Positions 100 to 21,589 of a DNA stretch of 21,589 nucleotides are shown here, one piece after another. The notes under the pieces are model-generated. The model was not told the origin of the DNA, did not search any database, and saw only the letters and a list, made by a program, of their open reading frames with translations. The translations under genes were made by a program, and so were the position numbers. Within the stretch, counting starts at the first letter, position 1, and each line of letters begins with the position of its first letter. Source of the stretch: Candidatus Iainarchaeum sp. (lineage in GTDB: Archaea; Iainarchaeota; Iainarchaeia; JAGGVJ01); contig JAGGVJ010000044.1 of NCBI GenBank assembly GCA_021158055.1, positions 1 to 21,589 of the forward strand, in the 5' to 3' direction.

Positions 100-3000
100 G
101 TGTTGTTTTTGAATGCGTTAACTAAATCATTTGTTTTTTTAACTGTTGTTCTTTTTTTGTCCCCTGTTTTTTCAGCGGGAACCTGGTGGGATTCAAACTG
201 GGAATACAGGAAAGCAATTACAGTTACTGATTCTTCCGGTTCTGAGTTGACTGATTTTCAGGTTGCAGTTGAGTTTGATTCTGCTTCTTTGATTTCAGCC
301 GGCAGTATGAACAGTGATTGCAGTGATTTGAGGTTTGCTGACGAGATGGGTTTGAGCCAGTTGAGCTATTGGATTGAGTCTGGGTGCAATACTGTAAGTA
401 CAAAGGTTTGGGTCAAGGTGCCAAATATTCCTGCAAACGGTTCAACTGAGATCCATATGTATTACGGCAATCCTTCTGCTGTTTCTGAAAGCCGTGGAAA
501 TGATGTTTTTGAGTTTTTTGATGATTTTAATGATGATGTAATTGATGTTTCAAAGTGGCAAAATACAACTGGTTTTTCTGAGTCAGGAGGGTATCTGAAC
601 GGCGGAAATACATCTTACAGAATACTTAGTTTGAATTCTTTTACAGGCAACTATGTCTTGGAAACAAAACACTTAACCACGACAGATGCCACCAATGGTT
701 ATCAGGCAGGGGGTTGGTATGCGTCGTCTTCGAACGGCTACAATGTTTTGCTTCATGCAACAAGCAGGTGGTATACGCGAAATGATGGTGATTGGCATGG
801 GATGGGGTCGTTTTCCTACCTGGATTCCTGGGTAAAAATCAAAACTGTTGCGGCCGGTTCTAATTCCAAGGCAGGTTTGTATAGATTGTCTGACGGGGCG
901 GAGTCAACAGAAGCGATTGACGACAACAGCGGTTTGGATTTAGAGTATGTCGGGCTAGGTAAAAGAAATGATAATAGCTTTACAGGTCAGGGTTATTCAG
1001 CTAAATGGGACTGGATTTTTGTAAGAAAATATTCTTCATCGGACCCCACATCGACGTTGGGTGCGCAGGAGCAAAGCGACAACCCAAGAGTAACAGGCAT
1101 TTCATTTAACCCTGTTTCATCTGAACCGGGGCAGACTGTGGCTGTAACAGCAACGGCTACTGACCCGCAAGGAATTGAAACAATCGGCACTTACACTTTC
1201 ACAGTCAAGCGACCGGATTCAAGCGTATTTGCAGGGCCTGTTACTCAGGCCGGTAACCAGTACTCTTTTACGCCAGATGAAATAGGTTACTGGTCGGTTG
1301 AAGTGACGGCAGCTGACATTGAAGGCAACAAAAGTTATTATCTTTCCCGAAAACTGCTTGTAAATGTTTGGTGGAACTCAAACTGGAAGTACAGGAAACA
1401 AATTGATGTCACTGAAAAGACAGGGTTTGACCTTGCAAACTTTCAGGTTGCAATAGATGCGCAAAACCTTATTTACAATAACGCGGGAATTGTCGGAAGC
1501 TGGCATTTTTCAGAAGGAAAAGGAATAAGGGCAAGTGATTCATCGAAAGAGGGCAACAGGGGAAAAATTGTCGGCGCAATCTGGACGACTGGAAAAGCAA
1601 ACGGAGGGCTTCAGTTCAGCGGCAGTGAAAGCAGTTATGTTGAAGTTGAAAACGATTCAAGTTTGACTCCGGCAAGCGAGTTCAGTGTTGAAGCGTGGGT
1701 TGAGGCAACGGACCTTGGCACCCCTCAGGAAACCGATCCTAAATCGTGTCTTGAGATACTTAGGAAAGGTGACTCTGCAGGAGACGGCGTTTATGCCGTT
1801 GACCCTGACGGGGTTGGGGGAAACCCTTCTTTTCAGGTTTATTGCGATATGACTACTGACGGCGGGGGCTGGACAGTGGTCGGGCATTACAGGCACCCTG
1901 CGTATGAAAATGCTCCTGCAGACCACGACAACAGGGATTATGCTTATTTCATGAAGGCGAGGTCAGATAATTATTTCGGAAAAGAGGATTATCTGGCAGA
2001 CCCGAACTCAGTCGGCCCGTGGACTGACTGGAGAGTTTTACAGGGCTTTGAATGGCCGGTTGAATTTGCAGTTGTTTTGGATAAAGGCGACAGTTACGCT
2101 TCAGGCTGGGAAACATACACCAAAAAAGCGGTTTACCTTGTAAAAAACAGGAACACCATGCCTAATTATGGGACCACGCAAGACCTTACAAGTTCAGACA
2201 ATGTATTATACAAACTCAACACAGCAGACAACTGGACAGACGTCGGAAGCAGTTCGGCTTCAGGAATATACTACTGGTATCCGAGAAATTCGGGAAATTC
2301 TTACCTCACGCTGTTTCATGTAAGCAATTATTATTACATTGACGGAAGAGCCGCAACCAATTACCACTACAACAACTACTACGGTTCAGGAATGCCCGGG
2401 GGAAACAATTCATGGCACCACGGTTCACACCTGCTTGTCAGGGAATCCGATTTGACTCCGGCAATCATCAAGAAAAGCGGTTCCTTTGAGTTGTCTGTTG
2501 AAAACGGTGAGTTTGTGGGGCGGATAAACAACAGGCCTGTTAGAACTCCTGCTTTGACGGGGTGGAACCACATAGTTATGACCTACAACAAAAACGCACC
2601 TTCAAACCAGCAAAAAATTTATGTAAACGGGGAGCTTAAAGCTCAATCGAGTTTGACTGAAGGCATAAATTCAAATACGAGCAAGGTTTTTATCGGCAGG
2701 TATCTCAACGGAAAAGTTGACGAAGTGCGTGTTTATGATAGGGAAATGTCCCAGGCAGAAGTTGCTGAAAGGTTCAGTTTGAGCAAGGCGAAATCGGACT
2801 ACAGCGACGTGAAATTTGTGTGGTTTGACCCGGTTTCAAACACCGACAAGGAACTGTTTCACTGGTTTGAAAACGATGAAAAAGTTTGGGTAAATGTTCC
2901 TGAACTCAAGGCCAATTCCACTGAAACCCTTTACATGTACTACGGCAACAGTGCTGCTTCAAGCCAGCCGAGAGTGGTTTACGAGTCATATGATGCAAAC

Positions 3001-6000
3001 GAGTTTTACACTGACGGAACTGCTGGAAGCGGTTCCTGTTCAACTTCAACAAATGCCCAGGGGTGGGAATGTGATTACTGTTCCTGCAGCAGTAACAAGT
3101 GGAACGGGATGTATATGATGCGCGCGACAAACCCTGACAGCGCGACCCTCAATTTCAACACGCCGTACCCTGAAGAAGACCACCTGCTCTGCCTGAAGAT
3201 GATTGACGGTGACAGGTGGCAGGGGTACAGGATAACCACTGAAGACGGGTATTCAACAGAATACAGGTACAACCCCGGGCATTACTGGGGCGGAGACGGG
3301 GGAACAGGCGGTCAATATGAATGGGATTCGTTTGACAATGACGTTGACATTTCATCTTATTTCAGCGATGTTTGCGTTGTGATTCCCGCTGAACACATTG
3401 ATTCCAACCAGTTTGCAATCACTTTTGATGACGGGGTCAAAGGAAGCATCCCTTCGTGGATTTCAGGGATAAAGCTTGTTGCCGGCGGTGTTTACAAAAT
3501 GGCGACGTATGAAGCGGAAAGAATACAGGACCACGAATATGCAGTCACCTATTATTGGGAGAGCACTGACTGGGGCTGGTATGGGGGTTGGAACAGCAGG
3601 GGAATGACCAATGCGACCGGAACGCATAACCTTACTGCTCACACGCAATATCCCGGCGAGCCCCACAAATTTGTCATTGATTCACTTGACGACAGGAACT
3701 CCTGTTATTACATTTCAGTCAACGGGTGGACTTCGCAGACCAACTGCACGCCCCAAAACGGCGGATATCATGACCAAGTTTCTCCGTTTTTCATTCCCGG
3801 CGGAGTGATTCCGACAAAAGATTTCACAATCAGCGTCACCACTCAAAGCAGTGGACGTTACACTACCCAATGGATGCTTTCAAGGGGAATGGAAAATGAA
3901 CCTGCTGCATCAATCGGATTTGAGGAGAGAAGCAATACGCCGTATGTTACGGGTGTTGTTGTCAGTCCGGGTTCGCCTGAACAGGGAAAAGAAGTCACCG
4001 TCACAGTCAATGCAGCTGATAGGCAGGGCATTGAAACGATTTCAAGCTATGAGTTCACAATCAAAAAAGCTGACGGCAGTGTTTTTGCAGGCCCTGTAAC
4101 CCAGTCAGGCAATGAATACTTGTTTACTCCTGATGCCGCGGGTTACTGGTCGGTTGAGGTGAGTGTGACTGACTCAGACGATCATAAAAGTGATGTGCAT
4201 TCAACGCAAGTGGTTGTCAGTGGTTGGTGGAACAGTAATTGGAGTTATAGGATTCCAGTAACTCTTACAGATACTTCGGGTTCAAATCTTATTGATTATC
4301 AGGTTGCAATTGAGTTTGATTCCGCTTCTTTGGTTTCTTCGGGATTAATGAATGCTGACTGCAGTGATTTGCGGTTTGCTGATGTTTATGGAATACATGA
4401 GTTGAGCTACTGGGTTGAGTCCGGGTGCAACACGTCCAGTACTAAGGTGGGGGTAAAGGTTCCAAGTATCCCCGCGAGTGACTCGGAAACAATTTACATG
4501 TACTACGGCAACCCAGATGCTTTAAGTGCAAGTGATAAGTTGGGGATTTTCACGGTTTTTAATGATTTTGAAGACAGTTTTTCAACCGGTTTTGGGGCCT
4601 GGCAAGTGGTTGAGAGTCATGATTTCACTGCTTTTGTGACGGATTATTACCAGTTGGGGTCTGGTTCGCTTTTGCAGTATCAGGATGACACTTCTCATAA
4701 TGCGTATAAGAAGGAGAGGTTAAGTGTTGATTTGAGCGGAAAGCTGATTGGAAAATTAAGAATTTACAATATATCTAGCTGGAGCACCACTAATTCAGGT
4801 AGCTGGTGGTCTTGGGCTTACACGCAGTTTTGCGTTAGGGACGGGACCAATAGCTATTGCAAATCAACAATGTATCACAAGCCCAATGCAGAGACAAAAG
4901 TTCACTATGACAATGTTGATACTGCTGACGGGTCTGAAGCGGGTTCTGATGGCAGGACATGGTATTATTATGATTATGTGATTCCTGATACCTGGAACAA
5001 GGAGTCAGTAACAATTGAGTTAATAACTGATGCTGACGGCGGTGATCAAGGAGCATTGGTGAAGTCCTGGGGCAGATGGGACGTGATGTACGCTCAGGGA
5101 GCAGTTTCTTCTGAGCCCACAGTTATTTTTGGTGTGCAGGAACAGTTTGACGCTCCAATAGTTACAGGAATCTCGCTTAATTTTTCTCTGTTTGAGGTAG
5201 GAGACACCATTGAGGCGACTGCTACTGCGACTGACCCGAATGACGACCCAATCATCCAGTATGATTTCCGTGTTTTGAATGGTTTGGGTAATGGGGTTTT
5301 GAATCCCTCTGTTCAGGGTTCAAATGTTTATTCTTTTACTGCTGTTGGCGAGCTTGGTTTGTGGCAGGTGAAAGCAAAGGCGTTTGACGGGGAGTACTGG
5401 GGTCCTGAATTCACCAAGGAAGTGTTTGTGAATGATTCAAGCCTTGCAACTGCGGGTTTGAGTTTTGATAATGGGGTATTTTCAAACACTGAAGTGTCAG
5501 CCGGAAGCGTGGTTCTTTTGGATGGACAAACAAATGGGGCTTTCACCACTAATGCAATTGACCCAGTGAATTTCAGCAAGTGGGGTGTCGTGACTTTCTC
5601 AAAAACCACGCCCGGGAGTTCAACGCTGACTGTTGATGTTTTGAAAGCATCTGATGATTCAGTTTTAATCGCAGACGTGAAGAACGGACAAAACATTTCA
5701 GGTCTTGGAGCCACTGCCATAAAACTGAGGGCAAATTTCACTTCCGGGAGCACTCCGTTTTTGGATTCATGGGACGTGAGTTATTATTCTCAATTTAAGA
5801 TAACTGTAACCAATTGCTCGGCTCCTTACTCAGGCGAAGTCACTGCAGAGGCGGTGAGGGTAAGTGATTCTGAAGAGTTTGGCCCGTTCACAGGAACCAA
5901 CGGGCAAGTGTTTGTTGAAGTCCCGCCGGGAATTTACAACATTCAGGCGTGCATTCCTGAAAACGAAAAGTGCAGCTGGAAGTACAACGTGGAACTCGCA

Positions 6001-6167: not shown

Positions 6168-6839
6168 ATGGTTGAAAAGTTTTTGAAGGACAGCATTATT
6201 AAAATAAAAAAAGTCGGTTTTGAGGGTTCTTTTGGAGTCGGGAAGTCAGCTACGATTCTTGGGGCGATGGGAAAACTCAAGTCAATGCATTTCAACGTGG
6301 AGATGATTCCTGAAGTGATTCGCGAGTGCCCGTTTCCCGCGGACCTGAGCGCCGGTGCAGACACGCAGTACTGGATTTTGAAGACACAGATGCAAAAAGA
6401 AATTGATGTTTCAAAAAATTTCCCTGACTTCATTTTTTGCGACAGGTGCGTTTTAAGCATGGTAGTGTATGGTTCTTTGCTTTTTGAGGAAGGGAAGCTT
6501 TCAGAAAAAGAACTGCGCCTTATCGTCAGGCTTGCGCGGGACTGGATTTCTTCTTATACTTGTTTTGTGCTTGTTGCGCCGATCAAGTCAGAGGAAGTGT
6601 TTGACGACGGGTTCAGGAGAACTGACCGCAAAGCGCAGCTTGCCTTGCACAACCGGTTTGAGGAAACCCTGAAGTTGATGGGGGTCCCGTTTACAGTAGT
6701 TTCAGGCGAGTACGACGAGCGGATAAAGGAAACAGTGTCTTTTTTGAGGGACCTGAAAAGGGACAACACAGAAGAAGAAACACTGAAAAAAGTGTTTGGG
6801 CTTGCAAAAAACAATGCAAACAAGGACAGTGAAAAGTGA
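6168..6839 (+). CDS. P-loop NTPase of the nucleoside/nucleotide kinase fold (AAA_28 / NadR-like or thymidylate-kinase-like)
   Basis: Walker A GSFGVGKS near the N-terminus, conserved E in IPEVIR, CDR motif, lid-like DDGFR. GGAG upstream of the ATG. Confidence 0.7.
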   Translation: MVEKFLKDSIIKIKKVGFEGSFGVGKSATILGAMGKLKSMHFNVEMIPEVIRECPFPADLSAGADTQYWILKTQMQKEIDVSKNFPDFIFCDRCVLSMVVYGSLLFEEGKLSEKELRLIVRLARDWISSYTCFVLVAPIKSEEVFDDGFRRTDRKAQLALHNRFEETLKLMGVPFTVVSGEYDERIKETVSFLRDLKRDNTEEETLKKVFGLAKNNANKDSEK

Positions 6840-6896
6840 TTTTGTGTTTTGATTTGATTTTTTAGAGTTGTTTAATTTTTTCAAAGGAGGGATAAT

Positions 6897-8147
6897 ATGT
6901 CAAAAGTTGCTGATTTGAGCCTTGCAGCGCAGGGAAAACTAAAGATTGAGTGGGCGCAGGCGCACATGCCTGTGATGGCAAAGCTTGTGGAAAAATATTC
7001 CGCGACAAAGCCGCTTGAAGGAATGAGGGTTGCAGGGTGCCTGCATGTTACAAAGGAAACCGCAGTGCTTGTGAAATCTTTGGTTGCCGCGGGTGCGGAG
7101 GTTTCCTGGAGCGGGTGCAATCCCTTGAGCACCCAGGACGACATTGCCGCTGCGCTGGCTGAAGAAGGTGTTGACATTTATGCCTGGAGAGGGCTTTCGA
7201 CCGAAGAGTTTTACTGGTGCATTGAACAGACCCTGAAGTTCAGGCCCACTCTTACCCTTGACGACGGCGCGGATTTGATTGTCCTGATTCACAACAAGCA
7301 CAAGGAACTCCTTGAAGACGTGGTTGGGGGAACGGAAGAAACCACCACGGGAATACACAGGCTTAAGGCCATGGCTGACGCAGGGGATTTGAAGTACCCT
7401 TTGATTGCAGTCAACAACGCCCAGACAAAATGGGATTTTGACAACGTTTACGGAACAGGCCAGAGTTCACTTGACGGCATATTAAGGGCTTCAAACATTC
7501 TTTTGGCAGGAAAAACTTTTGTGGTTGCAGGTTACGGCCATTGCGGAACCGGAATTGCCTTTCGCGCGAGCGGGATGGGCTCAAACGTGGTTGTGACTGA
7601 AATCGATGCAGTCAAGGCGCTTAGGGCAAAAATGGACGGGTTTTCTGTAATGCCCATGGATGAAGCGGCAAAAGTCGGCGATATTTTTATCACTGCAACT
7701 GGGATGAAGGACGTGATTGTCGGGAAGCATTTTGAGTCAATGAAAGACGGTGCGATTGTCTGCAACACAGGCCATTACGACGTTGAACTGAATTTGCCTG
7801 AACTCAAGAGCCTTTCAGTTGAACGCAGGGAAGTGCGCCCGAACAATGCCGAGTATGTTTTTGAAAACGGAAAAAAGATTTTTGTGCTTGCGGAAGGCCG
7901 TCTTGTAAACCTTTCTGCTGCCGAGGGGCACCCGAGCGAGGTCATGGACATGTCTTTTGCAAACCAGTTTTTGTCATTGATCCGCCTGGCGCGAGAGGGA
8001 AAAAACCTTGAGAACAAAGTTTATGATGTTTCTCTTGAGCAGGACGCCCTTGTTGCTGAAACAAAGCTTGAGGCCATGGGTGTAAAAATAGATAAACTAT
8101 CGCCTGAACAGGTAACTTATCTCACAGACTACAACGCAGGAACATGA
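6897..8147 (+). CDS. ahcY: Adenosylhomocysteinase (SAH hydrolase)
   Basis: Motifs GCLHVTKET, CNPLSTQD, DDGAD, EETTTG, FDNVYGTGQS, NAD-binding VAGYGHCG, GRLVNL, EGHPSEVMDMSF. RBS AAGGAGG upstream. Confidence 0.98.
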   Translation: MSKVADLSLAAQGKLKIEWAQAHMPVMAKLVEKYSATKPLEGMRVAGCLHVTKETAVLVKSLVAAGAEVSWSGCNPLSTQDDIAAALAEEGVDIYAWRGLSTEEFYWCIEQTLKFRPTLTLDDGADLIVLIHNKHKELLEDVVGGTEETTTGIHRLKAMADAGDLKYPLIAVNNAQTKWDFDNVYGTGQSSLDGILRASNILLAGKTFVVAGYGHCGTGIAFRASGMGSNVVVTEIDAVKALRAKMDGFSVMPMDEAAKVGDIFITATGMKDVIVGKHFESMKDGAIVCNTGHYDVELNLPELKSLSVERREVRPNNAEYVFENGKKIFVLAEGRLVNLSAAEGHPSEVMDMSFANQFLSLIRLAREGKNLENKVYDVSLEQDALVAETKLEAMGVKIDKLSPEQVTYLTDYNAGT

Positions 8148-8282
8148 GTGATGCACGCGGGAATGAGGGTAAGTATGCTTTGCTGCAAACGATTTGTGTT
8201 AATTGATTGATGCCTGATTTTTTGAAGTGATTGGGAGCATTATTTATTCTATTTAATCCATATTGTTTTCGGTGAGAAGTGC

Positions 8283-9329: not shown

Positions 9330-9349
9330 TTTTTTGAATATGTGATGGA

Positions 9350-11727: not shown

Positions 11728-11827
11728 GTTTATGGCTTTGTCTTGATCTTTGGGGTCTTGTCTTAAAGTTTTGCCCTGATGTTTTGACGTTTCATTTGAG
11801 GTTTGCGGATTTTTTGAAGGTGATTTA

Positions 11828-12010: not shown

Positions 12011-12038
12011 TTGCCGGCAGTTAGTGGTCAGAATCAGT

Positions 12039-12082
12039 TTGAAAGTTTAAAATTTGTTTGTTGAAAGTTTAAGGTTTGTTTG
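12039..12082 (+). repeat. Tandem 22-bp duplication containing a BRE-TATA-like element upstream of aIF2alpha
   Basis: TTGAAAGTTTAAAATTTGTTTG followed immediately by TTGAAAGTTTAAGGTTTGTTTG (20/22 identical). Confidence 0.75.
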
Positions 12083-12112
12083 ACGGTTTCGAAATAGTAT
12101 TGAGGTGAGTTT

Positions 12113-12898: not shown

Positions 12899-13062
12899 AA
12901 TACTTGCTTAGGGTGTGCGGCGACTGCGCAAGGTATTCGCTTTCCCGCGAGTGCCCGGAATGCGGGAAAAAAACCGGTTACGCTCACAGCGCACCTTTTT
13001 CTCTTGAGGACCGTTACGGTGCCTGCAGAAGAAAACTGAAGCAGGAACAGGGTTTAATTTAG
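12895..13062 (+). CDS. nop10: H/ACA RNP protein Nop10 (55 aa, below the ORF-track cutoff)
   Basis: Hand translation MKYLLRVCGDCARYSLSRECPECGKKTGYAHSAPFSLEDRYGACRRKLKQEQGLI. Has a CxxC-CxxC zinc ribbon and the FSxEDxYGxxRR motif. ATGA overlap with the aIF2alpha stop; canonical synteny. Confidence 0.95.
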   Translation: MKYLLRVCGDCARYSLSRECPECGKKTGYAHSAPFSLEDRYGACRRKLKQEQGLI

Positions 13063-13079
13063 CTGTTTTGCGTGATTAA

Positions 13080-13865
13080 ATGAAATCAAACGTTGTGTGG
13101 AAAGAAAAGCCAAAGCTGAAAAACGCTTCGCTTATTTGCGGCCTTCCCGGAATCGGTCTTGTCGGGCAGATTGCCGCAAACTATCTGGTGGACAAGCTTT
13201 CAATGACGAAAGCAGCAGACCTTTATTCGCCTCATTTTTACCCGCAGGTAATAACTGATTTAAGCGGAAAGATAAAAATGATCCGCGACGAGTTTTATTG
13301 CTGGAAAAACCCTTCCGGAGACGATTTGATCGTGTTGAGGGGAGACATGCAGCCGTTCATAAACCCGCAGATCCAGGTTAATTTCCCTCACTTTCAGGTA
13401 AACAACGATATTCTTGACGCCGCATTGGAAATGAACGCAAAAAAAGTGATTACTCTGGCAGGCCTTGGAATAAGCGAAGCTGATTCCAGGTCAAAGGTCC
13501 TGGTTGCCGGAAACGACAGTGAACTGATAAAAAAAGCAGTTGATTTGGGCGCCAGCATCACCCCTACGGGATTGCCGATAATTGGCGGCGCAGGGTTGCT
13601 TTTGGGTCTTGCAGAAATCCGAAGCGTTCCCGCGGTTTGCCTGATGGGAAAAACCAATGCCAAAGTACAGGGCCCTGATGTGGAAGCTGCGAAATCAGTT
13701 GTGGAGTTTGTTTCAAAGCTTGCGGGGTTTGAAATTGACATGAGTGAAATAGAGGAAAACGCAAAGAAATCCACAAAGATTTTCAAAGACGTTCTTGAAA
13801 AAGTTCAGGAACAGGAAAAAGCCATGAAAAGGTCGCGTGAAGTTGACACCGCTTATATCCGTTGA
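13080..13865 (+). CDS. PAC2-family proteasome assembly chaperone-like protein
   Basis: GLPGIGLVG, YL...YSPHF.PQV, GD.QP, IIGGAGLLLG, CLMGKT, PD..AAK, C-terminal YIR. Usual position after nop10. Confidence 0.92.
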   Translation: MKSNVVWKEKPKLKNASLICGLPGIGLVGQIAANYLVDKLSMTKAADLYSPHFYPQVITDLSGKIKMIRDEFYCWKNPSGDDLIVLRGDMQPFINPQIQVNFPHFQVNNDILDAALEMNAKKVITLAGLGISEADSRSKVLVAGNDSELIKKAVDLGASITPTGLPIIGGAGLLLGLAEIRSVPAVCLMGKTNAKVQGPDVEAAKSVVEFVSKLAGFEIDMSEIEENAKKSTKIFKDVLEKVQEQEKAMKRSREVDTAYIR

Positions 13866-13866
13866 A

Positions 13867-13925
13867 GCGCACACTGTAAACTATGCGCCCGCGGTTTTTT
13901 TGGTTTTTTAATTTTGTTTGCTTTT
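13867..13925 (+). terminator. Probable oligo-T terminator of the replication/translation cluster
   Basis: GCGCA...TGCGC short stem (13867-13888) followed by several T tracts directly after the PAC2 stop. Confidence 0.5.
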
Positions 13926-13935
13926 TGCCGGGTTC

Positions 13936-13981
13936 AAAACAAAACTTTATATAGTACAATAATTATATAAAATTGTACTAT
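13936..13981 (+). promoter_or_regulatory. BRE/TATA promoter for a leaderless transcript, overlapped by a 10-bp inverted repeat
   Basis: AAAACTTTATATAG about 30 nt upstream of ATG 13980; no RBS. ATAGTACAAT (13951-13960) and ATTGTACTAT (13972-13981) are perfect reverse complements. Confidence 0.65.
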
Positions 13982-15284
13982 GAAAGAAATTATAAAAACA
14001 CTGCTGATTGAATGGAAAGAAAGAAAATTGCCTTTTATTTTTGACAGGGACATCGATCTTGATAAATACACTGAGTCAAGGCCAAATAAGATAATAGCTG
14101 TTTCAGGATTCAGAAGAACCGGCAAGACTTATTCTATGATGCATGTCATCAGGGAACTGTTAAAAGAGAACACTAAAGAAAATGTTGTTTACCTTAATTT
14201 TGAAGATGAAAGGATTCCGGAGAAGACGGAGTTTTTAACAATGTTGATTCCGACAATAAATGAATTATTTAAAGGCGAGTTAAAATTTTTGTTTTTAGAT
14301 GAAATTCAGAACATTCCAAATTGGAGTAAATGGCTGAGGAGAGTTTATGATGCGGAGAATATAAGATTTTTTGTGTCCGGCTCTTCTTCAAAAATGTCAA
14401 GCAAAGAGATTCCCACTGAATTGAGAGGCAGGTTTTTGGAAGTAAAAATGTTCCCTCTTTCGTTTAAAGAATTTTTAAGGTTTAAAGGACTTGAATTTGA
14501 CTTAAAAACAATAGGTTATTCGGATAAGCAAAAATCAGAATTGCTGAAATATTTAAATGAGTTTCATGAATACGGCTCTTTGCCTGAGATTGTGCTGGCG
14601 GAAGAGGGCAGGAAAGCAGATATCGCTAATTCATATTATCAAACCGTTGTTCGGCGGGACATTATAGAACGGCATAATATCAAGAACGAGGAGGCATTAA
14701 AGGCCTTGTTAAGGCTTTTGCTTAACTCTACTAAGTATTCCGTAAGTAAAATGTACAATAACCTAAAAGCATTGCATCATAAAGTGGGAAAATCGACTTT
14801 GCAAAAGTATCTTGGTTATGTGGAGAATTCGTTTTTTATGTTCAGTGTTCCGATCTTTTCATATAAAATCAAAGATCAGATGCAGTATGCCAGAAAAAAT
14901 TATTTTGTTGATGTTGTTTTTATAAGCAAGCTTTCAAATAAATTCACTAAAGATTTTGGAAGGCTGTACGAGAATTCAACCGCGATTGAGTTAAAGAGAA
15001 GGAATAAAGAATTTTATTATTGGGAAAATTCAAAGAAACAAGAAGTTGATTTTGTAATTGTTGAAGACGCTAAAGCCAGTCAGCTAATTCAGGTCTGCTT
15101 CAACATTGCTGATTTGGAGACAAGGAAAAGGGAAATCAGGTCTTTAATCCAGGCAAGCAGGGAATTAAAATGCAAAAACTTGGCAGTGATTACAGAAGAT
15201 TGTGAAGATGAAACTGAAGAGGAATGGTTTGGCACAAAAAGAAAGATAAAATTTATTCCATTGTGGAAATGGCTGCTTGAATAA
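13980..15284 (+). CDS. AAA+ ATPase (AAA_14) with HTH-like region and C-terminal DUF4143 nuclease-like domain
   Basis: Walker A GFRRTGKT, YLNFEDER, Walker B LFLDEIQ, SGSSS, LRGR, GSLPE. DUF4143-type KNYFVD, GRLYEN, YYW...EVDF...IQV. Visibly AT-richer than neighbours. Confidence 0.9.
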   Translation: MKEIIKTLLIEWKERKLPFIFDRDIDLDKYTESRPNKIIAVSGFRRTGKTYSMMHVIRELLKENTKENVVYLNFEDERIPEKTEFLTMLIPTINELFKGELKFLFLDEIQNIPNWSKWLRRVYDAENIRFFVSGSSSKMSSKEIPTELRGRFLEVKMFPLSFKEFLRFKGLEFDLKTIGYSDKQKSELLKYLNEFHEYGSLPEIVLAEEGRKADIANSYYQTVVRRDIIERHNIKNEEALKALLRLLLNSTKYSVSKMYNNLKALHHKVGKSTLQKYLGYVENSFFMFSVPIFSYKIKDQMQYARKNYFVDVVFISKLSNKFTKDFGRLYENSTAIELKRRNKEFYYWENSKKQEVDFVIVEDAKASQLIQVCFNIADLETRKREIRSLIQASRELKCKNLAVITEDCEDETEEEWFGTKRKIKFIPLWKWLLE

Positions 15285-15566
15285 AGTGAGATTGATTGAA
15301 CCTGTAAATAATTTCAGTGATGAAACGATGAAACACCAAACACCGCTTTTATCTGCAAATTACTGAAAGTGTTCGCGTTATTTTTGGGGTTAGAAAATGA
15401 ACAAAGATTATCTGAAAAAGCGAAAAAAGTTAGGACACGACATTAGCTGTTTTAGGGCCGTCAATTTCAAGTCAGCTTAAATTGCCTTAAACAGTTTGCG
15501 TTTTTGTCTTGCGGCGCCTGCCTGAAAACGCAAATTATTAATTGTTTGCGGATTAAAGATGATATT

Positions 15567-16520
15567 ATGTTTGACTACTGGAAACTTCCGCCTTATAACT
15601 TTGCAGGGCTTGAAAGCCACTGTGATTTTGAGTCCTCAAGGTTTGTGGTGGTTCCCGTGCCTTTCGACAGCACTGTCTCTTACGGTTCCGGCTGCAGGGA
15701 AGGCCCTCACGCAGTGATTTCTGCGAGCAGGCACATGGAGCTTTTTGACAGGGATTTCGGCGAGCCATACCTGCATGGAATCTGCACTCTTGATGAGCTT
15801 GAGCCGGCGCGCGGAGACCCGAAAGAAACAATTGACCGCGTTTGTTTTGTTGCAAAAAAAATAGTTGAGGCGAGAAAGATCCCGGTGTTTCTTGGAGGCG
15901 AGCATTCAATCACAGTTGGGGTTTTGAACGCGTTCAAGGAAATCAGCGACAACGTAAACGTTCTCAAAAAAGCTGTGTCAGCAACTTCTTCAAAAGAAAG
16001 AGACAAGGGGTTGCTTGTGGTGCAGTTTGACGCGCACGCTGACCTGCGCGACGAGTTTGACGGAACAAAGTATTCCCACGCGTGCGTGATGAAGCGCGCG
16101 CATGAAACGTTTGACACCCTGCAGATCGGGTTGCGCTCGGTTTCAAAAGAAGAAAGCGGGTTCATGGAAAAAAACAAGTTTGACTGTTTTTTTGCACAAG
16201 ATCTGAATTCAGACAAGGATTCAGGCAAAACAACCATTGCAAAAAAGATTGAAAAACTTGTGCAAGGTCGGGAAGTGTACATTTCAGTTGACATGGATGT
16301 TTTTGACCCTTCGGTTGCGCCGGGAGTCGGAACCCCCGAGCCAAACGGCTTGGCTTACAGGCAAGTCCTTGACCTTGTTTCTTTGATAGTTTCTGCTTCT
16401 TCCAAGACAGTCGGTTTTGACTGTGTTGAAACAAGCCCGATTCCAGGAAGCACCGTGACTGAATACACGGCAGCAAAGCTTGTGTATTCAATGATGGGCT
16501 TTTTGTCTGCGAAAAGGTAA
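15567..16520 (+). CDS. speB: Agmatinase (ureohydrolase family)
   Basis: VPFDSTVSYGSG.REGP, GGEHS, FDAHADLRD, YSHAC, SVDMDVFDPS.APGVGTPEP.G. The ATG at 15567 is preferred to the track's TTG at 15504. Confidence 0.93.
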   Translation: MFDYWKLPPYNFAGLESHCDFESSRFVVVPVPFDSTVSYGSGCREGPHAVISASRHMELFDRDFGEPYLHGICTLDELEPARGDPKETIDRVCFVAKKIVEARKIPVFLGGEHSITVGVLNAFKEISDNVNVLKKAVSATSSKERDKGLLVVQFDAHADLRDEFDGTKYSHACVMKRAHETFDTLQIGLRSVSKEESGFMEKNKFDCFFAQDLNSDKDSGKTTIAKKIEKLVQGREVYISVDMDVFDPSVAPGVGTPEPNGLAYRQVLDLVSLIVSASSKTVGFDCVETSPIPGSTVTEYTAAKLVYSMMGFLSAKR

Positions 16521-16613
16521 AGGCAAGCAGATATTTAAACAAGAAGTCATTTTCTTAATTCAGGCTTATTGATAAATTTGTTTTTAAGTTGAGTTGCGCT
16601 TTAAGGTGTTGAA

Positions 16614-19600
16614 ATGGTTGTCCAAAAAAAGTTGTTTTTGATTTTTGCGTGCATTGTGGCTCTTTTTCTTTTTATTCAGCCGGTTTGCTCCGCTTCATGG
16701 TGGGATTCAAACTGGGAGTACAGGAAACCGGTCACTGTGACTGACACCAGCGGTTCTGATCTGGCTGATTTTCAGGTTTTGTTCGGGTTTGATTCTCAAT
16801 CACTGGTTTCTGCCGGGAAGATGAATGCTGATTGCAGTGATTTGAGGTTTGCTGACGAGTCGGATTTGCGGGAGTTGAGTTATTGGGTTGAGTCCGGGTG
16901 CAACACTGCAAATACGATGGTGTGGGTGAAGGTTCCAAGCATCCCCGCAAGTTCATTTACAGTCATATATATGTATTACGGCAACGCGCCTGCAAGTTCT
17001 GCGAGCAACTATATCAATACTTTTGATGTCTTGGGTGACGGCTCTGACGGGACTTTAACAGTTTCTTCTGCGGGTACGGTGGTTAATGATTATGATTACT
17101 TAACCGGAAATGAAGATGCTGGAGAAACATCCATAGTTGTAAACAGCGGTTCTGGTTTTTCAGATGGAGACGAAATATTGATAATACAGATGCAAAGCTA
17201 TTCCGGCGGTGTTGCAGGAACCTATGAGTTCAGAAAGATAAGTTCCGGCGGGGGCACGACAACATTCACGCTTGATGCGCCGTTAAAAAACAGTTATGCT
17301 TCAGGGACGTTTAACCCGTCCGCCGCCACGGTGACGCAGGTTGTCAGGGTTCCGCAATATACCGGCGTGACCGTTGATGCAGGGGCAAGTATAATTTCTT
17401 CTGCCTGGAATGGTTACAAGGGAGGGGTAGTCATATTTAGGGCAAGCGGAGATGTAACTGTAAATGGAAATATTGATGTGTCAGGCAAGGGGTTTAGCGG
17501 GGGTGCCGGGGCAGCTGCTACTTCACCTGCACTTGGGGGCATAACATATAATGGAAGAGGCGGTTCAGGAGGTTATGTTTATTCATATGCCGGGCTTGCG
17601 GGACAAGGCGGTGGCGGAGGCGGAGGCAGCTGGACCAACGGAGGGATGGGAAGCGGCGCTGCCGGAACTGTCGGCGGCGCGGGCGGAGGCGGTGGCGGAC
17701 AGCGGGAAGGTTGCTATATGTCCCCTTATGGTGGCGGTGGCGGCGGAGGTGGATATGGCTCCGCAGGCAATGGGGGGTACGGGAGTAATAATGGTTCAGA
17801 GGGCATTAATTCAATGGGCGGCTCGGGAGCAACCCCCGCCGCTGTCGGCTGTAACAGCATCGGTTCCCCTGGCGGGGGCGGAGGCGGCGGAATTTACGGA
17901 ACACCTAATCTTGCCAAGTTATATTTAGGAAGCGGTGGTGCAGGTGGCGGAGGCGGCTGGCAACAGGATGGCGGCGGCAGTTCATCCGGCGGAAGCGGTG
18001 CAGGCGGAGGAGGAATTATTTATGTCACTGCAAACGCCATTGCCATTAATGACGGTGCGGCAGTTTCGGCTGACGGTGACCAGGGTTCAGCTGGCGGTAC
18101 AAGCGGTAACGGCAATTCAGGCGGGGGAGGGGGAGGTGCCGGAGGTTCGGTATATCTCACAGGAAATTCCCTTGCCGTGGGCACGGTCCAGGTAACTTCT
18201 GACGGCGGGGCAGGAGGGGCAGGCGGAAACGGACCTATGGCCGGTGGTATCGGCGGAGATGGCCGCATCCGTTTAAGTTCTTATTCCATATCAGGTTCAA
18301 CGGGCCCGACAGCTTATACAGCGGGATTTGATGAGGAATATGTCCGAAAATACGCTTCCTCTGAACCAGCGTCAGATATGGGTGTGGAGGAGCAGAGTGA
18401 TCTGCCGTGTGTTACAGGTGTTTCTTTTGATCCAGTTTTTCCCGAGTCAGGCCAGCTTGTGACTGTGACGGCAGCCGCTGATGACCCGCAGGGAATCGGG
18501 ACGATTGACAGTTATTCTTTTACGGTGAAAAGCCCTGAAGGGAGTGTGTTTGCGGGGCCGGTTTCGCAGGGGAGCAATGTGTATTCTTTTATTCCCAATG
18601 TTGCGGGTTCGTGGACTGTTGAGATTACGGCGACTGATGCAGAGGCGAACACAAGCAGTGTTTTCAGCGAGAGTGTGAGTGTCCGCGGCTGGTGGGATTC
18701 AAACTGGGAGTACAGGAAAGCAATTACTGTGGCTGACACCAGCGGTTCTGATCTGGCTGATTTTCAGGTGCTGGTCGGGTTTGATTCTCAATCCCTGGTT
18801 TCTGCCGGGAAGATGAATGCTGATTGCAGTGATTTGCGGTTTGCTGACGAATCGGGTTTGAGCGGGTTGGGTTACTGGGTTGAGTCCGGGTGCAATACTG
18901 CGGACACGAGGGTTTGGGTAAAGGTCCCTGAAATCCCCGCAGGTTCAGGCAAGACAATCTATGTTTACTACGGCAATGCGGAAGCGGAGAGCGCGAGTGA
19001 CGGGGATGCAGTGTTTGAGTTTTTTGATGATTTTGAGGATGATGTTGTTGGACAAATGGCTACTGGATGGGTTGATGCAAGCACCGGAAGTGGGTGGTCA
19101 CAAGTGAGTGATGCACAAGCCAAGCAAGGAAGTAAAAGCTTGGAAGCATATGGGGTTTCGTCAAGCAACGATGGCATACCTAGGAGATACAATATTGATT
19201 CAGTTGTAGATTATGCTTTTAGTTTCTGGGCAAGGTTTGGTAATGTTGATGCAGGTGGAGATGTAGCTTTTAGCTTTAGTGATACAAATGGTGGAGGTTT
19301 GGGGTCGGCAAGTGAAATTTTTAGCGCGAGTTCTATGATGATTTATGCTGAGACAGGCAGCACTTTTTTCACACCCGTTGATGATACTTGGTATTTCTTT
19401 GAATTTAAAAAAGCTAATTCATTGTCAAGCGCTTATGTTTATGATGCAAACCGGGATTTAATAACAAGTGTAGTAGACCAACCAGCACCGTCTACTTATG
19501 GTTTTGATAAAATTTATATAATTAGTGGTAATGGGGGGCAGGATTGCTTTTTTGATGTATTTCGAATCCGCAAATACGCTTCTTCCGAACCGGAATCAAA

Positions 19601-21589
19601 TGTGGGTGTGGAGGAGCAGAGTGATCTGCCGTATATTACAGGTGTTTCTTTTGACCCGGTTTTTCCCGAGGCAGGTCAGCTTGTGACTGTGACGGCGACC
19701 GCTGCTGACCCGCAGGGAATCGGGACGATTGACAGTTATTTTTTTACTGTGAAAAACCCTGAAGGGAGTGTGTTTGCTAGTTCGGGTTCGCAGGAGAGTA
19801 ATGTTTATTCTTTTGCTCCTGATGTTGCTGGTTTGTGGACTGTTGAGGTTACTGTGACTGATGCACAGGCGAACACAAGCAGTGTGTTCAGTGAACAAAT
19901 CAGTGTTGGTGGTTGGTGGGATTCAAACTGGATGTACAGGAAACCAATTACTGTGGCTGACACCAGCGGTTCTGATCTGACTGATTTTCAGGTGTTGCTT
20001 GAGTTTGATTCCGCTTCTTTGATTGCAGACGGCTTGATGAATGCCGATTGCAGTGATTTGCGCTTTGCTGACGGGTTTGGTTTGAGTGCGTTGGGTTATT
20101 GGGTTGAGTCGGGTTGCAATACTGCAAGCACCAAGGTTTGGGTGAAGGTTCCGGCTATTCCCGCAAACGGTTCAACAGACATTCACATGTATTACGGCAA
20201 CGCGCCTGCTGAGAGTGCAAGTAGCGGATCAGGTACTTTTGAGTTTTTTGATGATTTTGAGGAGGGGGTATTAGATAAATGGAAACAAACTACCTATGGC
20301 TCAATATCGACTACAGCTCATTCAGGCACATATTCTGGTGTGAGTACTACTGCCTGTTGTAAGGGTGAGCCAAACTTAGGTTTTATTTCTAACGACTTTT
20401 CGGCAATTCATAATTGTGTTGTTGAATATTGGTTTCGTGAAACTGCACGCCAGCCGTATTTCGGGTTATATATGGATTCTGGTAATTCCAATAACCGCTT
20501 TAAAAACCGAGTAGATTGCGAGCCTCACAGTGCAATGACTACAGAGTTTTGGGTTACAGAAAACGGTAGCTCTCTTGGTGGTAGTGGTAATGTTAGTGAT
20601 TTTAGTCGAAACACCTGGTATCATTCAAAAATAATAGTAAATGGAACAAATATAAAATGGTATTTTGATACTGCCGATGCGACGACTTTAAGAGGCGAGA
20701 TGACGCACGCAAATATTGCTAATTTGAATTTCACAAATTTTGCGTTTGTGGCCCGGGGAGGAAATACATACGCAGATGACATCCGCGTCCGCAAATACGC
20801 TTCTTCCGATCCCGCCGTAAGTTTTGGCGCGCAGGAGCAGTTTGGGGCGCCGGTTGTCACAGGGATGTCTTTTAATTTTTCGTTGTTTGAAGTAAGGGAT
20901 TCTGTAGAGGCGACTGCAGTGGCGTCTGATCCCGAAGGCGATCCGGTCATTCAGTATGATTTCCGTGTTTTTGATGGTTCGGGAAATGAGGTTTTGAATC
21001 CCGCAGCCCAGGATTCAGGCACTTATTCTTTCAATGCGATTGGCGAGCCCGGTTTGTGGCAGGTAAAGGCAAAAGCGAGTGACGGTGAGTACTGGGGCCC
21101 CGAGTTTACCAAAGAAGTGTTTGTGAATGATTCAGGTCTTGCAACCGTGGGTTTGAGTTTAAGCAACGGAGAGTATTCAAGCACTGAGCTGGTTGACGGA
21201 AGCGTGGTTCTTTCAGGCACGCAGTCAAGCGGGACTTTCATTACTCCTGCGATTGAGCCCGTGAATTTTAGCAAGTGGGGAGTCGTGACTTTTTCAAAGA
21301 CCACTCCGGGAAACTCAGCGCTGATGGTTGATGTTCTGGACGCGTCTGATGACTTGGTTTTAATCGCGGACGTGAAGAACGGGCAGAACATTTCAGGTCT
21401 TGAAGCCGGCGCCATAAAACTGAGGGCAAACTTTACTTCCGGAAGCACTCCGACACTGGATGCGTGGGACGTGAGTTATTACTCTCAATTTAAAATCACA
21501 ATCACGGATTGTTCAAATCCCTATTCGGGTGAGGTCACTACAGAAGCGGTAAGGGTAAGTGATTCCGAAGAGTTCGGCCCGTTCACGGG
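16614..21589 (+). CDS. Giant secreted multidomain surface protein (paralog B), 3'-truncated by the window edge: signal peptide, 3 DUF2341-like units, glycine-rich domain, Ig-like spacers
   Basis: Not in the ORF track. By hand translation the frame is open from ATG 16614 (MVVQKKLFLIFACIVALFLFIQPVCSASWWDSNWEYRK) to the window end, more than 1650 codons. WWDSNW at 16698, 18690 and 19914 are all in frame. The C-terminal part is colinear with paralog A. Confidence 0.92.
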   Translation, partial: MVVQKKLFLIFACIVALFLFIQPVCSASWWDSNWEYRKPVTVTDTSGSDLADFQVLFGFDSQSLVSAGKMNADCSDLRFADESDLRELSYWVESGCNTANTMVWVKVPSIPASSFTVIYMYYGNAPASSASNYINTFDVLGDGSDGTLTVSSAGTVVNDYDYLTGNEDAGETSIVVNSGSGFSDGDEILIIQMQSYSGGVAGTYEFRKISSGGGTTTFTLDAPLKNSYASGTFNPSAATVTQVVRVPQYTGVTVDAGASIISSAWNGYKGGVVIFRASGDVTVNGNIDVSGKGFSGGAGAAATSPALGGITYNGRGGSGGYVYSYAGLAGQGGGGGGGSWTNGGMGSGAAGTVGGAGGGGGGQREGCYMSPYGGGGGGGGYGSAGNGGYGSNNGSEGINSMGGSGATPAAVGCNSIGSPGGGGGGGIYGTPNLAKLYLGSGGAGGGGGWQQDGGGSSSGGSGAGGGGIIYVTANAIAINDGAAVSADGDQGSAGGTSGNGNSGGGGGGAGGSVYLTGNSLAVGTVQVTSDGGAGGAGGNGPMAGGIGGDGRIRLSSYSISGSTGPTAYTAGFDEEYVRKYASSEPASDMGVEEQSDLPCVTGVSFDPVFPESGQLVTVTAAADDPQGIGTIDSYSFTVKSPEGSVFAGPVSQGSNVYSFIPNVAGSWTVEITATDAEANTSSVFSESVSVRGWWDSNWEYRKAITVADTSGSDLADFQVLVGFDSQSLVSAGKMNADCSDLRFADESGLSGLGYWVESGCNTADTRVWVKVPEIPAGSGKTIYVYYGNAEAESASDGDAVFEFFDDFEDDVVGQMATGWVDASTGSGWSQVSDAQAKQGSKSLEAYGVSSSNDGIPRRYNIDSVVDYAFSFWARFGNVDAGGDVAFSFSDTNGGGLGSASEIFSASSMMIYAETGSTFFTPVDDTWYFFEFKKANSLSSAYVYDANRDLITSVVDQPAPSTYGFDKIYIISGNGGQDCFFDVFRIRKYASSEPESNVGVEEQSDLPYITGVSFDPVFPEAGQLVTVTATAADPQGIGTIDSYFFTVKNPEGSVFASSGSQESNVYSFAPDVAGLWTVEVTVTDAQANTSSVFSEQISVGGWWDSNWMYRKPITVADTSGSDLTDFQVLLEFDSASLIADGLMNADCSDLRFADGFGLSALGYWVESGCNTASTKVWVKVPAIPANGSTDIHMYYGNAPAESASSGSGTFEFFDDFEEGVLDKWKQTTYGSISTTAHSGTYSGVSTTACCKGEPNLGFISNDFSAIHNCVVEYWFRETARQPYFGLYMDSGNSNNRFKNRVDCEPHSAMTTEFWVTENGSSLGGSGNVSDFSRNTWYHSKIIVNGTNIKWYFDTADATTLRGEMTHANIANLNFTNFAFVARGGNTYADDIRVRKYASSDPAVSFGAQEQFGAPVVTGMSFNFSLFEVRDSVEATAVASDPEGDPVIQYDFRVFDGSGNEVLNPAAQDSGTYSFNAIGEPGLWQVKAKASDGEYWGPEFTKEVFVNDSGLATVGLSLSNGEYSSTELVDGSVVLSGTQSSGTFITPAIEPVNFSKWGVVTFSKTTPGNSALMVDVLDASDDLVLIADVKNGQNISGLEAGAIKLRANFTSGSTPTLDAWDVSYYSQFKITITDCSNPYSGEVTTEAVRVSDSEEFGPFT
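16698..16990 (+). repeat. DUF2341-like constant segment; further copies at about 184-475, 4225-4515, 18690-18980, 19914-20205, plus a split, diverged copy at 1369-1475 and 2785-2950
   Basis: Shared DNA such as TGGTGGGATTCAAACTGG, GATTTTCAGGT, TGCAGTGATTTG.G.TTTGCTGA, TGGGTTGAGTC.GG.TGCAA and ATGTATTACGGCAA. Confidence 0.92.
18345..18689 (+). repeat. Closing-strand plus Ig-like spacer repeat; near copy at 19569-19913 (offset 1224), more diverged copies at about 1024-1368 and 3880-4224
   Basis: RKYASSEP..GVEEQSDLP..TGVSFDPVFPE.GQLVTVTA.A.DPQGIGTIDSY; identical run TGGGTGTGGAGGAGCAGAGTGATCTGCCGT in both paralog B copies. Confidence 0.92.

Follow-up and report, generated by a model that had tools for sequence, protein, structure and literature searches.

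Ultra-small symbionts, including the DPANN archaea, must recognize and hold their hosts. Multi-lectin surface proteins are the leading candidates for this role and are known mostly from annotation lists. In the accessible parts of two reports, surface proteins with multiple LamG or concanavalin A-like (ConA-like) domains are described as expanded and strain-specific in DPANN archaea and are proposed to be host-attachment factors; in Mia14 ('ARMAN') and the nanohaloarchaea SVXNc and BNXNv, they account for 5.9 to 6.2% of the genome (PMC5498576, PMC10266531). Here we analyze a complete contig of 21,589 nucleotides (C18, which we call the window) that carries two giant genes, A and B, whose products join lectin-type domains to the domain DUF2341. 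We conclude, with a probability of about 0.72, that A and B belong to a lineage-specific family of secreted, multivalent, lectin-type surface proteins and that their mosaic makeup comes from recombination over evolutionary time.

DUF2341 (PF10102, the MJ1470 family) occurs in giant proteins of the candidate phyla radiation (CPR), DPANN archaea, and Omnitrophota, and A and B resemble these in their high Pfam scores. The accessible text of three papers names DUF2341 in some very large (>4000 residues) proteins of Patescibacteria (PMC11809585), in two large proteins of methanococcal type IV pilus loci that are proposed to be tip adhesins (PMC4858521), and as an appendage of MotA-like proteins (PMC12505986). 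In that text, DUF2341 is an annotation label only, and neither its fold nor a unit structure is given. Unlike the pilus-locus adhesins (arCOG03508-like), A and B have no pilus genes beside them in the window; their neighbors are genes of replication, translation, and metabolism.

The likeness to the DPANN multi-LamG proteins, as far as the accessible text describes them, is closer: a small genome encodes many large, apparently secreted proteins with multiple ConA-like or LamG domains and Ig- or PKD-like domains, all specific to the strain or lineage. The family of A and B totals 35,766 nucleotides, or at least 3.1% of the assembly, versus the 5.9 to 6.2% reported for the DPANN proteins. The differences are that the lectin domains here ride on DUF2341 in a strict repeat with conserved junction strands and that the members share one signal peptide and one C-terminal module. 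In the accessible literature on DUF2341 or on DPANN multi-LamG proteins, we did not find a description of this unit grammar, of the nesting of domains, or of the uncoupling of scaffold and core.

Two kinds of dedicated diversification systems also invite comparison. Antigenic variation by gene conversion (pilE/pilS, vlsE, and trypanosome VSG) involves silent donors, near-identical flanks, and variation that is visible within a population. The family of A and B likewise has variable segments framed by conserved sequence in surface proteins, and a mosaic made by recombination. However, silent donors and near-identical flanks were not found here, nor, in contigs of three runs, was variation within the population. 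Diversity-generating retroelements target lectin-fold proteins and have been described in DPANN and CPR. They too concern diversified ligand-binding domains of surface proteins in small-genome symbionts, but whole cores differ here rather than scattered adenine-templated sites, and the genome (95% complete) has no match to the reverse transcriptase family PF00078, so A and B do not qualify as retroelement targets, although no separate search for template repeats was made. A first-pass annotation of the window had rightly noted that it encodes neither a reverse transcriptase nor a recombinase.

Thus, the family is a well-resolved addition to the multi-lectin surface proteins of DPANN archaea, and its mosaic is real, recombinational, and on an evolutionary time scale. 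The locus allows a clean dissection: a fixed unit grammar, two insertion slots, nesting at three levels, and a shared export signal and C-terminal module. It provides quantitative evidence that scaffold and core have evolved separately, in this genome and throughout a family that has about 15,000 representatives in a protein library, and it offers defined binding cores and a defined junction as testable material.

Architecture of genes A and B and of their family

The features of the two genes are as follows (positions in the window, strand, description; residues of the protein are marked aa).

100..6003, +: gene A, 1967 aa, GTG start; signal peptide, three DUF2341 units, and shared C-terminal module
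100..180, +: signal peptide of A, aa 1-27, ending SPVFSAG; 90-95% identity across the N-termini of the family
184..528, +: A1 constant block, DUF2341 through FEFFDDF, aa 29-143
529..996, +: A1 variable core, probably ConA-like, aa 144-299; matched by the distant-relative core profile at E 2.3e-12
997..1359, +: A1 closing strand WDWIFVRKY, linker SSDP..GAQEQ, and Ig-like spacer
1369..1470, +: N-terminal part of the A2 DUF2341, aa 424-457, severed from the remainder of the domain
1471..2766, +: slot alpha, a LamG domain inside DUF2341, aa 458-542 and 791-889
1726-2469, +: fibrinogen-like YCDxxxxGGGW domain that splits the slot-alpha LamG, aa ~543-790
2767..2949, +: C-terminal part of the A2 DUF2341, ending MYYGN, aa 890-950; DUF2341 match at 2797-2997
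2950..3867, +: A2-beta passenger, aa 951-1256, with the degenerate closing motif MLSRGMENEP
3868..4215, +: A2 linker and Ig-like spacer
4225..4569, +: A3 constant block, aa 1376-1490, terminating in FTVFNDF
4570..5064, +: A3 variable core, aa 1491-1655, a cassette type of its own
5065..6000, +: A3 closing segment (without RKY), last Ig-like domain, and shared C-terminal module
16614..21589, +: gene B, 1658 aa (open reading frame 16614-21587), 3' end open at the contig end
16698..17030, +: B1 constant block, aa 29-139
17031..18323, +: B1 passenger, a Gly-rich module, aa 140-570; YVRKYASSEP is retained behind it
18324..18683, +: B1 closing segment, linker, and Ig-like spacer
18690..19034, +: B2 constant block, aa 693-807, 86% nucleotide identity to the B1 block
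19035..19541, +: B2 variable core, probably ConA-like; core profile E 3.2e-6
19542..19907, +: B2 closing motif RIRKYASSEP, linker, and Ig-like spacer
19914..20258, +: B3 constant block, aa 1101-1215; modeled with confidence 93-98
20259..20765, +: B3 variable core, predicted ConA-like jelly roll; core profile E 3.4e-11
20766..21589, +: B3 closing motif RVRKYASSDP, last Ig-like domain, and C-terminal module (truncated)

Each protein is a chain of units closed by a family-specific C-terminal module, with each unit made up of a DUF2341 beta-sandwich, a binding domain, a conserved linker, and an Ig-like spacer. The default binding domain is a ConA-like/LamG jelly roll of ~190 residues, with the probable end strands FEFFDDF and xVRKY conserved and the core not. 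In some units, a carbohydrate-binding-type or repeat module (Gly-rich, fibrinogen-like, or CBM-like) replaces the core. In other units, a LamG domain sits inside DUF2341, sometimes itself holding a fibrinogen-like domain.

Both proteins are clear members of PF10102 (gathering score, 23.4 bits), with three stretches each: 204.5 bits and E 2.5e-61 for A, and 258.2 bits and E 4.7e-78 for B. The WWxSNW motif that starts a unit lies at residues 29, 424, and 1376 of A and at 29, 693, and 1101 of B; YYGN lies at 121, 947, and 1468 of A and at 121, 785, and 1193 of B. The signal peptides were read from the translations. The C-terminal module of A (~200 residues) has no Pfam match and no C-terminal hydrophobic tail. 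The Ig-like spacer scored below the cut-offs of its best Pfam models (PKD, 16.3 bits against 23.5; Big_7, 16.3 bits against 24.1).

The first-pass annotation had proposed that every unit runs from a constant block through an insert and an RKY closing motif to an Ig-like domain. Constant block, insert, and Ig-like domain stand in this order, but neither A2 nor A3 has an RKY motif, and the DUF2341 of A2 is split by a LamG domain, which lies between WWNSNW at residue 424 and MYYGN at 946. This LamG matches Laminin_G_3 (PF13385) in two stretches (E 1.2e-15 / 8e-20), with 58.4 bits in the whole protein and 71.9 in the excised segment (gathering score, 27.6). It is split in turn by a fibrinogen-like domain, which belongs to NF040941 (GGGWT_bact; 72.6 bits, cut-off 30) and matches PF00147 (Fibrinogen_C; 30.2 bits, cut-off 22) in its N-terminal part only. 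Residues 546-597 of this domain have sequence matches in the PDB, to FIBCD1, ficolin, and intelectin. Unit A2 thus nests three levels: DUF2341, LamG, and fibrinogen-like domain. The first-pass annotation had overlooked this second slot. The inner slot is not peculiar to A2: four other units of the genome carry plain LamG domains inside DUF2341. The fibrinogen-like domain shares 57-69% identity with six tandem repeats in P0154, a protein of 2068 residues under the NCBI name Myxococcota bacterium, so this passenger module could be shared across domains of life.

The passengers behind the constant blocks (slot beta) vary too. The B1 passenger scored 63.9 bits against the N-terminal domain of AgmC (NF047640; cut-off 275); by its sequence, it is a related Gly-rich module and not AgmC. 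It is homologous to unit 1 of contig C15 and to modules that stand free, without DUF2341 flanks, in P0101 and P0134. A2-beta has no relative in its own genome and no match to the ConA-like core profile described below, and may consist of two CBM6/35-like modules, which we regard as a candidate lead only. The A3 core is also unmatched by that profile; it is 54% identical to a core in P0231, where it is framed by TFTLFNDF and IMFVRKYASPEP. Protein atlas scores for A2-beta (0.90, low recognition) and A3 (best 0.89) were treated as leads and not used as evidence.

A and B had initially been taken for a system of two paralogs. Each does have a signal peptide, three DUF2341 units, and a C-terminal module, but they are members of a larger family: the 1.15-Mb genome holds 17 family pieces of open reading frames with 13 C-terminal modules, and 18 Pfam matches to DUF2341. 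The family comprises at least 13 putatively secreted and sugar-binding surface proteins. Among 151 genomes of the class, this one has the most DUF2341 matches; the next highest count among the matches listed is 8. Two further family genes, on contigs C8 (L003) and C36 (L001), depart from the usual order: unit 1 runs straight into unit 2 without an Ig-like spacer, and unit 2 begins with YSFRKAI rather than WWDSNWEYRK and has a LamG within its DUF2341. A complete open reading frame of 620 residues on another contig (C21:48494-50353, reverse strand) has the family's C-terminal module and no DUF2341 unit; therefore, the module serves another N-terminal part too.

Windows of 40 residues from A and B were compared with every family protein assembled from this genome. 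The constant parts (signal peptide, DUF2341 through FEFFDDF, closing strand and linker, Ig-like spacer, and C-terminal module) each have 10 to 18 other copies at 60-95% identity. The six inserts have no matches at all, save B1, which matches C15 unit 1 and has low-complexity glycine matches. Similarity therefore falls from 10 to 18 copies to none at the same two boundaries in each unit, as first described. The boundary coordinates agree within a few tens of bases, and the pattern goes far beyond chance. The flanking DNA had been called very similar. Copies of the constant parts are 65-88% identical at the DNA level (blastn; 12-35% of bases differ), which is well short of near identity, and the longest exact match between paralogs is 28 nucleotides, apart from a 127-nucleotide overlap between contigs C18 and C45.

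Separate histories of scaffold and core

The rate of evolution of the scaffold was estimated from twelve uninterrupted DUF2341 blocks of this genome (66 pairs). The median nucleotide identity was 75.7%, the median synonymous divergence (dS) was 0.96, and the median ratio of nonsynonymous to synonymous divergence (dN/dS) was 0.19; dS was 0.35-0.65 for the closest pairs, with a minimum of 0.35. The cores between these scaffolds align no better than shuffled sequences (seven pairs, z from -1.1 to 4.6). For instance, the cores of C8 unit 1 and C31 unit 1 gave z -1.1 at a scaffold dS of 0.35, and B1 and B2 have a scaffold dS of just 0.50 and yet hold different folds. Because the scaffold dS is unsaturated, the cores are at the level of shuffled sequences, and B1 and B2 differ in fold, divergence in place cannot produce the mosaic.

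Comparisons with foreign proteins lead to the same conclusion. Over its full length, the A1 core shares 47-51% identity with cores from three foreign giants (P0055, P0127, and P0121), whose adjacent DUF2341 domains are just 33-41% identical to that of A1. Similarly, A3 and P0231 are 54% identical in the core and 40% in the flank. Both cores resemble foreign cores more than they do any other core of this genome, whereas the scaffolds are the reverse: in a tree of DUF2341, eight units of this genome and one unit of its kin form a clade versus 73 foreign units, with a Shimodaira-Hasegawa-like approximate likelihood ratio (SH-aLRT) of 99. The core tree does not add support (see below). Thus, the formal phylogenetic conflict rests on the contrasts in identity and on the cases of A1 and A3.

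The uncoupling is also seen in proteins of other organisms. Among 445 pairs of units from the same foreign protein, 57 have a scaffold identity of at least 60% and a core identity below 25%, and 13 have a core identity of at least 50% with a scaffold at least 15 points lower (for example, 97% versus 49%). Between organisms, DUF2341 identity is 40-60% and the cores are near 12%. By these sequence comparisons, the uncoupling of scaffold and core is a property of the whole DUF2341 family.

Since scaffold and core have separate histories, recombination is needed, as homogenization of the scaffold, replacement of the core, or both. The first-pass annotation had proposed that binding domains are exchanged by homologous recombination through the conserved flanks, and the need for recombination is borne out by scaffolds at dS 0.35-1, cores at the level of shuffled sequences, and the foreign identities of A1 and A3. 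The sharp boundaries would then arise either because the scaffold is homogenized within the lineage or because cores are replaced between the two junction strands. Either way, the outcome would be a lineage-specific scaffold joined to old, separately conserved binding cores.

Fold of the unit and ownership of the junction strands

A search with unit B3 (406 residues) in a library of 1.84 billion proteins gave 14,937 representatives at E<=1e-3, and many of these relatives are giants of 4,000-7,700 residues. In the best 150 proteins, DUF2341, core, and closing strand were covered together in 155 of 573 matched stretches. By a crude motif count, the distance from YYGN to RKY was 175-224 residues in 121 of 158 cases. 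The standard family unit is therefore DUF2341 followed by a domain of ~190 residues that ends in xVRKYxSPEP, and this arrangement is not peculiar to the genome studied here.

An AlphaFold2 model of unit B3 (from a 40-row alignment) had a mean predicted local distance difference test score (pLDDT) of 81.1 and a predicted template modeling score of 0.78. Three parts can be distinguished: six strands and a helix make up DUF2341 (pLDDT 93-98), 13 strands form the core domain (54-90), and about 7 strands form the beta domain of the Ig-like spacer (77-90). Foldseek matched the unit to galectins, the lectin domain of calreticulin, CBM66, and DUF1080-type structures in the PDB (around E 1e-5; range, 4e-5 to 6e-6). 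Galectins, the calreticulin lectin domain, and CBM66 are all ConA-like jelly rolls. A sequence search of the PDB with the same unit gave no matches at E<=1. Pfam at E<=5 gave just sub-threshold hints for the six inserts, and the slot-beta cores also scored below the cut-offs of the curated models: 22.2 bits for B3 against Laminin_G_3 (cut-off 27.6), 17.8 bits (E 0.0046) for B2 against CBM_4_9 (cut-off 25.9), and nothing for A1.

To link the cores to each other, we relied on a core profile built from 33 distant relatives, with all rows from this genome excluded, and searched against flank-trimmed cores. It detected 10 of the 16 inserts of the genome (E 2e-12 to 4e-4), including A1, B2, and B3, and missed A2-beta, A3, B1, C15 units 1 and 3, and C36 unit 3. 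The predicted two-sheet jelly roll with about 13 strands was obtained for B3 only; A1 and B2 are tied to B3 by the profile only. What usually fills the slot is the core of a lectin domain of the ConA-like/LamG type, and, as far as profile similarity can tell, A1, B2, and B3 are one domain family. Truly different passengers also sit in the same slot: ConA-like cores, a Gly-rich module, a fibrinogen-like domain, and others. The inserts had been described as not aligning with one another by eye. Pairwise alignment agrees, but three of the six can be aligned by profile only; gradual divergence among them was not found.

Which domain the junction strands belong to is a separate question. The first-pass annotation had treated DUF2341 as a socket whose last strand, RKY, follows the insert. 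Our results argue against this. FEFFDDF is probably the first strand, and RKY the last, of the predicted ConA-like domain, so that RKY probably does not complete DUF2341. The standard family unit is DUF2341 plus a ConA-like domain. When the segment from FEFFDDF to RKYASSDP was folded without DUF2341, the RKY strand (E178-187) persisted in a hairpin with the preceding strand. This isolated model of 195 residues aligns over its whole length (195-250 columns) to complete ConA-like domains, and its structural matches in Foldseek are the DUF1080-type protein 3u1x, legume lectins, and lyases. In addition, the two motifs tend to occur together: of 437 YYGN sites in foreign proteins, 134 have both an FxFFDDF-like motif and, at the standard distance, a closing motif, 81 have the first only, 53 the second only, and 169 neither (odds ratio, about 5). 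End strands that belong to a single domain would be expected to co-occur in this way. The LamG domains in the inner slot of this genome end in IDEVRIYNRALS, and in a weak profile-profile alignment (hhalign) of slot-beta with slot-alpha domains (probability 41% over 43 columns), their DEVRIYNRALS end is colinear with DDIRVRKYASS. In C36 unit 3, 'VRNY' is part of the terminus of the fibrinogen-like domain itself (compare it with HHGSHLLVRE in A2 and with how P0154 ends).

Several observations pull the other way. The model of the isolated domain is poor (pLDDT 59). FEFFDDF is disordered, with neither a strand nor confidence, when DUF2341 is absent, and may pack on DUF2341. The Pfam model of DUF2341 reaches into FEFFDDF. 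Also, B1 retains YVRKYASSEP behind a passenger that is not ConA-like, which fits the idea of a frame. We read the junction strands as the ends of an ancestral ConA-like domain that are packed against the scaffold and survive as a frame where the core has been replaced. The assignment of RKY to a DUF2341 socket is probably wrong, and the intuition of a frame is partly right.

Alternative explanations, the sampled population, and the surrounding genome

In our reading, the locus records old recombinational domain shuffling in host-adhesion lectins and not active cassette switching. Further points weigh against this conclusion. First, the catalogue is incomplete, because contig ends truncate 13 of the 17 family pieces. 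Second, the core tree has long branches and just three starred forks, and the approximately unbiased (AU) test does not reject a clade of this genome's own cores (p 0.38). Third, some Foldseek matches with this fold are lyases and hydrolases, which makes an enzymatic role possible. We weigh them below with the alternatives that they bear on.

The first alternative, in line with the first-pass annotation, is that cassette exchange is operating: DUF2341 with its junction strands would be a display frame, the junction DNA would be a recombination site, and cores would still be swapped among the roughly 13 paralogs, which would diversify host recognition on ecological time scales. We consider this unlikely. 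What still speaks for it is the left junction:

507..529, +: left junction TTT GAG TTT TTT GAT GAT TTT (FEFFDDF); also at 19014-19039 and 20235-20263, with copies in contigs C31, C34, and C36

This is the most nucleotide-uniform stretch of the constant block, and 10 of the 14 longest exact matches between paralogs (21-28 nucleotides) fall on it. Across the ten standard units, its codons are TTT in 40 of 40 cases and GAT in 19 of 20, versus 69% and 39% in the genome, which prefers GAC (61%). In other genomes of the class, four examples of the motif use mixed codons. This looks like local homogenization, and the uniformity could be the footprint of conversion tracts that end there. The persistence of junction strands around the B1 passenger, and uncoupling in both directions across the family, would also fit ongoing exchange.

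However, the scaffold copies differ at 12-35% of bases (dS 0.35-1), exact matches do not exceed 28 nucleotides, and codon uniformity is absent from the right junction. Among the 17 family pieces, which all lie in long open frames of a genome that is incomplete and fragmented there, we saw no promoterless donor copies, and no recombinase was found in the window. With neither silent donors nor near-identical flanks, the family does not fit a gene-conversion cassette.

The runs that bear this sequence are labeled hydrothermal vent metagenome, and we compared contigs from three runs of one study with the window. No well-supported joint revealed an alternative cassette at a single locus, although contigs drop rare variants. 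Four candidate joints (302->16878, 263->19007, 16949->19007, and 19039->19567) have sides of 22-41 letters with 90% likeness, and we read them as paralogs rather than variants. Contigs of two runs repeat the same cores. These contigs come from a second assembler and may derive from the same samples as the window; they bridge both boundaries of A1, A3, and B2, and the left boundary of A2-beta, and they cover each boundary of B1 on separate contigs, all with no differences. In other assemblies, the copies of A (P0153) and of the C8 gene (P0157), on contigs of 29,314 and 57,895 nucleotides, are 99.8-100% identical; P0153 is an identical C-terminal piece of gene A of 1085 residues. The claim of an operating diversification system is thus not supported: we found neither donor cassettes nor near-identical flanks nor, in the contigs, alternative cassettes. 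The reading as switching was overstated, and what we see is domain shuffling and not a demonstrated switching system.

In one respect, the contigs might suggest variation in the population. Pieces unique to gene A (window 417-5483) have a depth of 3.9-8.6 in the Logan contigs of two runs, and the housekeeping contig (window 5946-16727) has depths of 16.4 and 12.1 in the same two runs. Contig depth cannot rank genes and was not used. If the contrast in depth is real, gene A would be carried by part of the population only.

A broader form of this idea casts DUF2341-lectin repeats as a display frame that is ready for recombination and general among small-genome symbionts (DPANN, CPR, and others). 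The homogenized FEFFDDF junction and the closing strand would be the splice point, and cores would be exchanged among paralogs and organisms, and even across domains of life for the fibrinogen-like module. We offer this as a speculation that we ourselves doubt. If it were true, host range would evolve by cassette swap without a dedicated enzyme.

Alternatively, A and B might not be adhesins at all but secreted enzymes that degrade polysaccharides, or structural, S-layer-like proteins of the envelope. The ConA-like matches in Foldseek do include glucuronan and alginate lyases, DUF1080-type proteins, and domains associated with glycoside hydrolases. Nevertheless, searches of Pfam and NCBIfam gave no catalytic family above its cut-off, a single lattice protein would not be expected to exist as thirteen divergent paralogs whose binding modules are shuffled, and the passengers are of lectin type (fibrinogen-like, LamG, and possibly CBM-like). 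This explanation seems improbable to us. By analogy, we favor a role in which the proteins bind glycans or glycoproteins on host cells or surfaces and in which each protein, like the genome as a whole, covers many specificities. The first-pass annotation had likewise suggested adhesion or host recognition, which would fit what is proposed for the multi-LamG proteins of DPANN archaea in the accessible parts of those reports (PMC5498576, PMC10266531).

It is still harder to maintain that no recombination took place, that is, that the units are old duplicates whose DUF2341 domains are under purifying selection and whose cores diverged in place under diversifying selection. DUF2341 does evolve slowly (dN/dS of 0.19, and 40-60% identity between organisms, versus near 12% for cores), ten cores form one family by profile and have similar lengths, and, as noted above, the AU test does not reject a clade of own cores. 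Against this, the closest scaffold pairs are far from saturated and their cores align no better than shuffled ones, B1 and B2 differ in fold at dS 0.50, the A1 and A3 cores are nearer to foreign cores (47-54%) than to any own core while their scaffolds behave oppositely, and some foreign pairs have near-identical cores on scaffolds that are 36-49% identical. We therefore give this explanation little credence.

Finally, chimeras made by a metagenome assembler that jumped between repeated constant blocks can be set aside: the family does break the assembly (13 of the 17 pieces end at contig ends), but constant blocks that are 65-88% identical, with exact repeats of at most 28 nucleotides (the 127-nucleotide overlap aside), are too short a repeat for a k-mer assembler, the second assembler spans the boundaries of A1, A3, B1, and B2 with no differences, and identical proteins are found on other contigs.

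The rest of the window concerns the source organism and the flanks of the family genes. The assembly has 1,147,527 nucleotides in 45 contigs and is 94.9% complete. A and B, both on the forward strand, flank nine housekeeping genes:

1..99, +: 5' region upstream of gene A, conserved and common to three other family genes
6168..16520, +: housekeeping block, outside the family: AAA_28 ATPase, AdoHcy hydrolase, PriX-like protein, PriS, GINS51, aIF2-alpha, PAC2 (proteasome chaperone), AAA_14/DUF4143 ATPase, and arginase family

The presence of PriS, a PriX-like protein, GINS51, aIF2-alpha, and PAC2 marks the organism as archaeal. Family proteins have named relatives in Pacearchaeota, Aenigmatarchaeota, and Nanohaloarchaea; together with the 1.15-Mb genome, these relatives point to a DPANN-like archaeon. 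A metagenome scan for the arginase-family gene found one distant locus (38% identity) and no syntenic relative, and a genome scan with AdoHcy hydrolase gave 80 loci from many phyla at 54-69% identity, which were uninformative about synteny. A 160-residue open reading frame without a Pfam match lies on the reverse strand between the GINS51 and aIF2-alpha genes (window 11512-11994).

At the start of the window, positions 1-529/535 are 78-84% identical (blastn) to contigs C36, C8, and C31. Positions 1-127 are also 100% identical to the first 127 bases of contig C45 in reverse orientation. This match is a k-mer overlap from the assembler, and the junction of C18 and C45 probably lies here, just upstream of gene A. 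Within the housekeeping block, the AAA_14/DUF4143 ATPase gene (window 13980-15284) has a dip in G+C content (0.34, versus ~0.44), and the only matches from the third run (X3) cluster around it. This may be a foreign or mobile gene.

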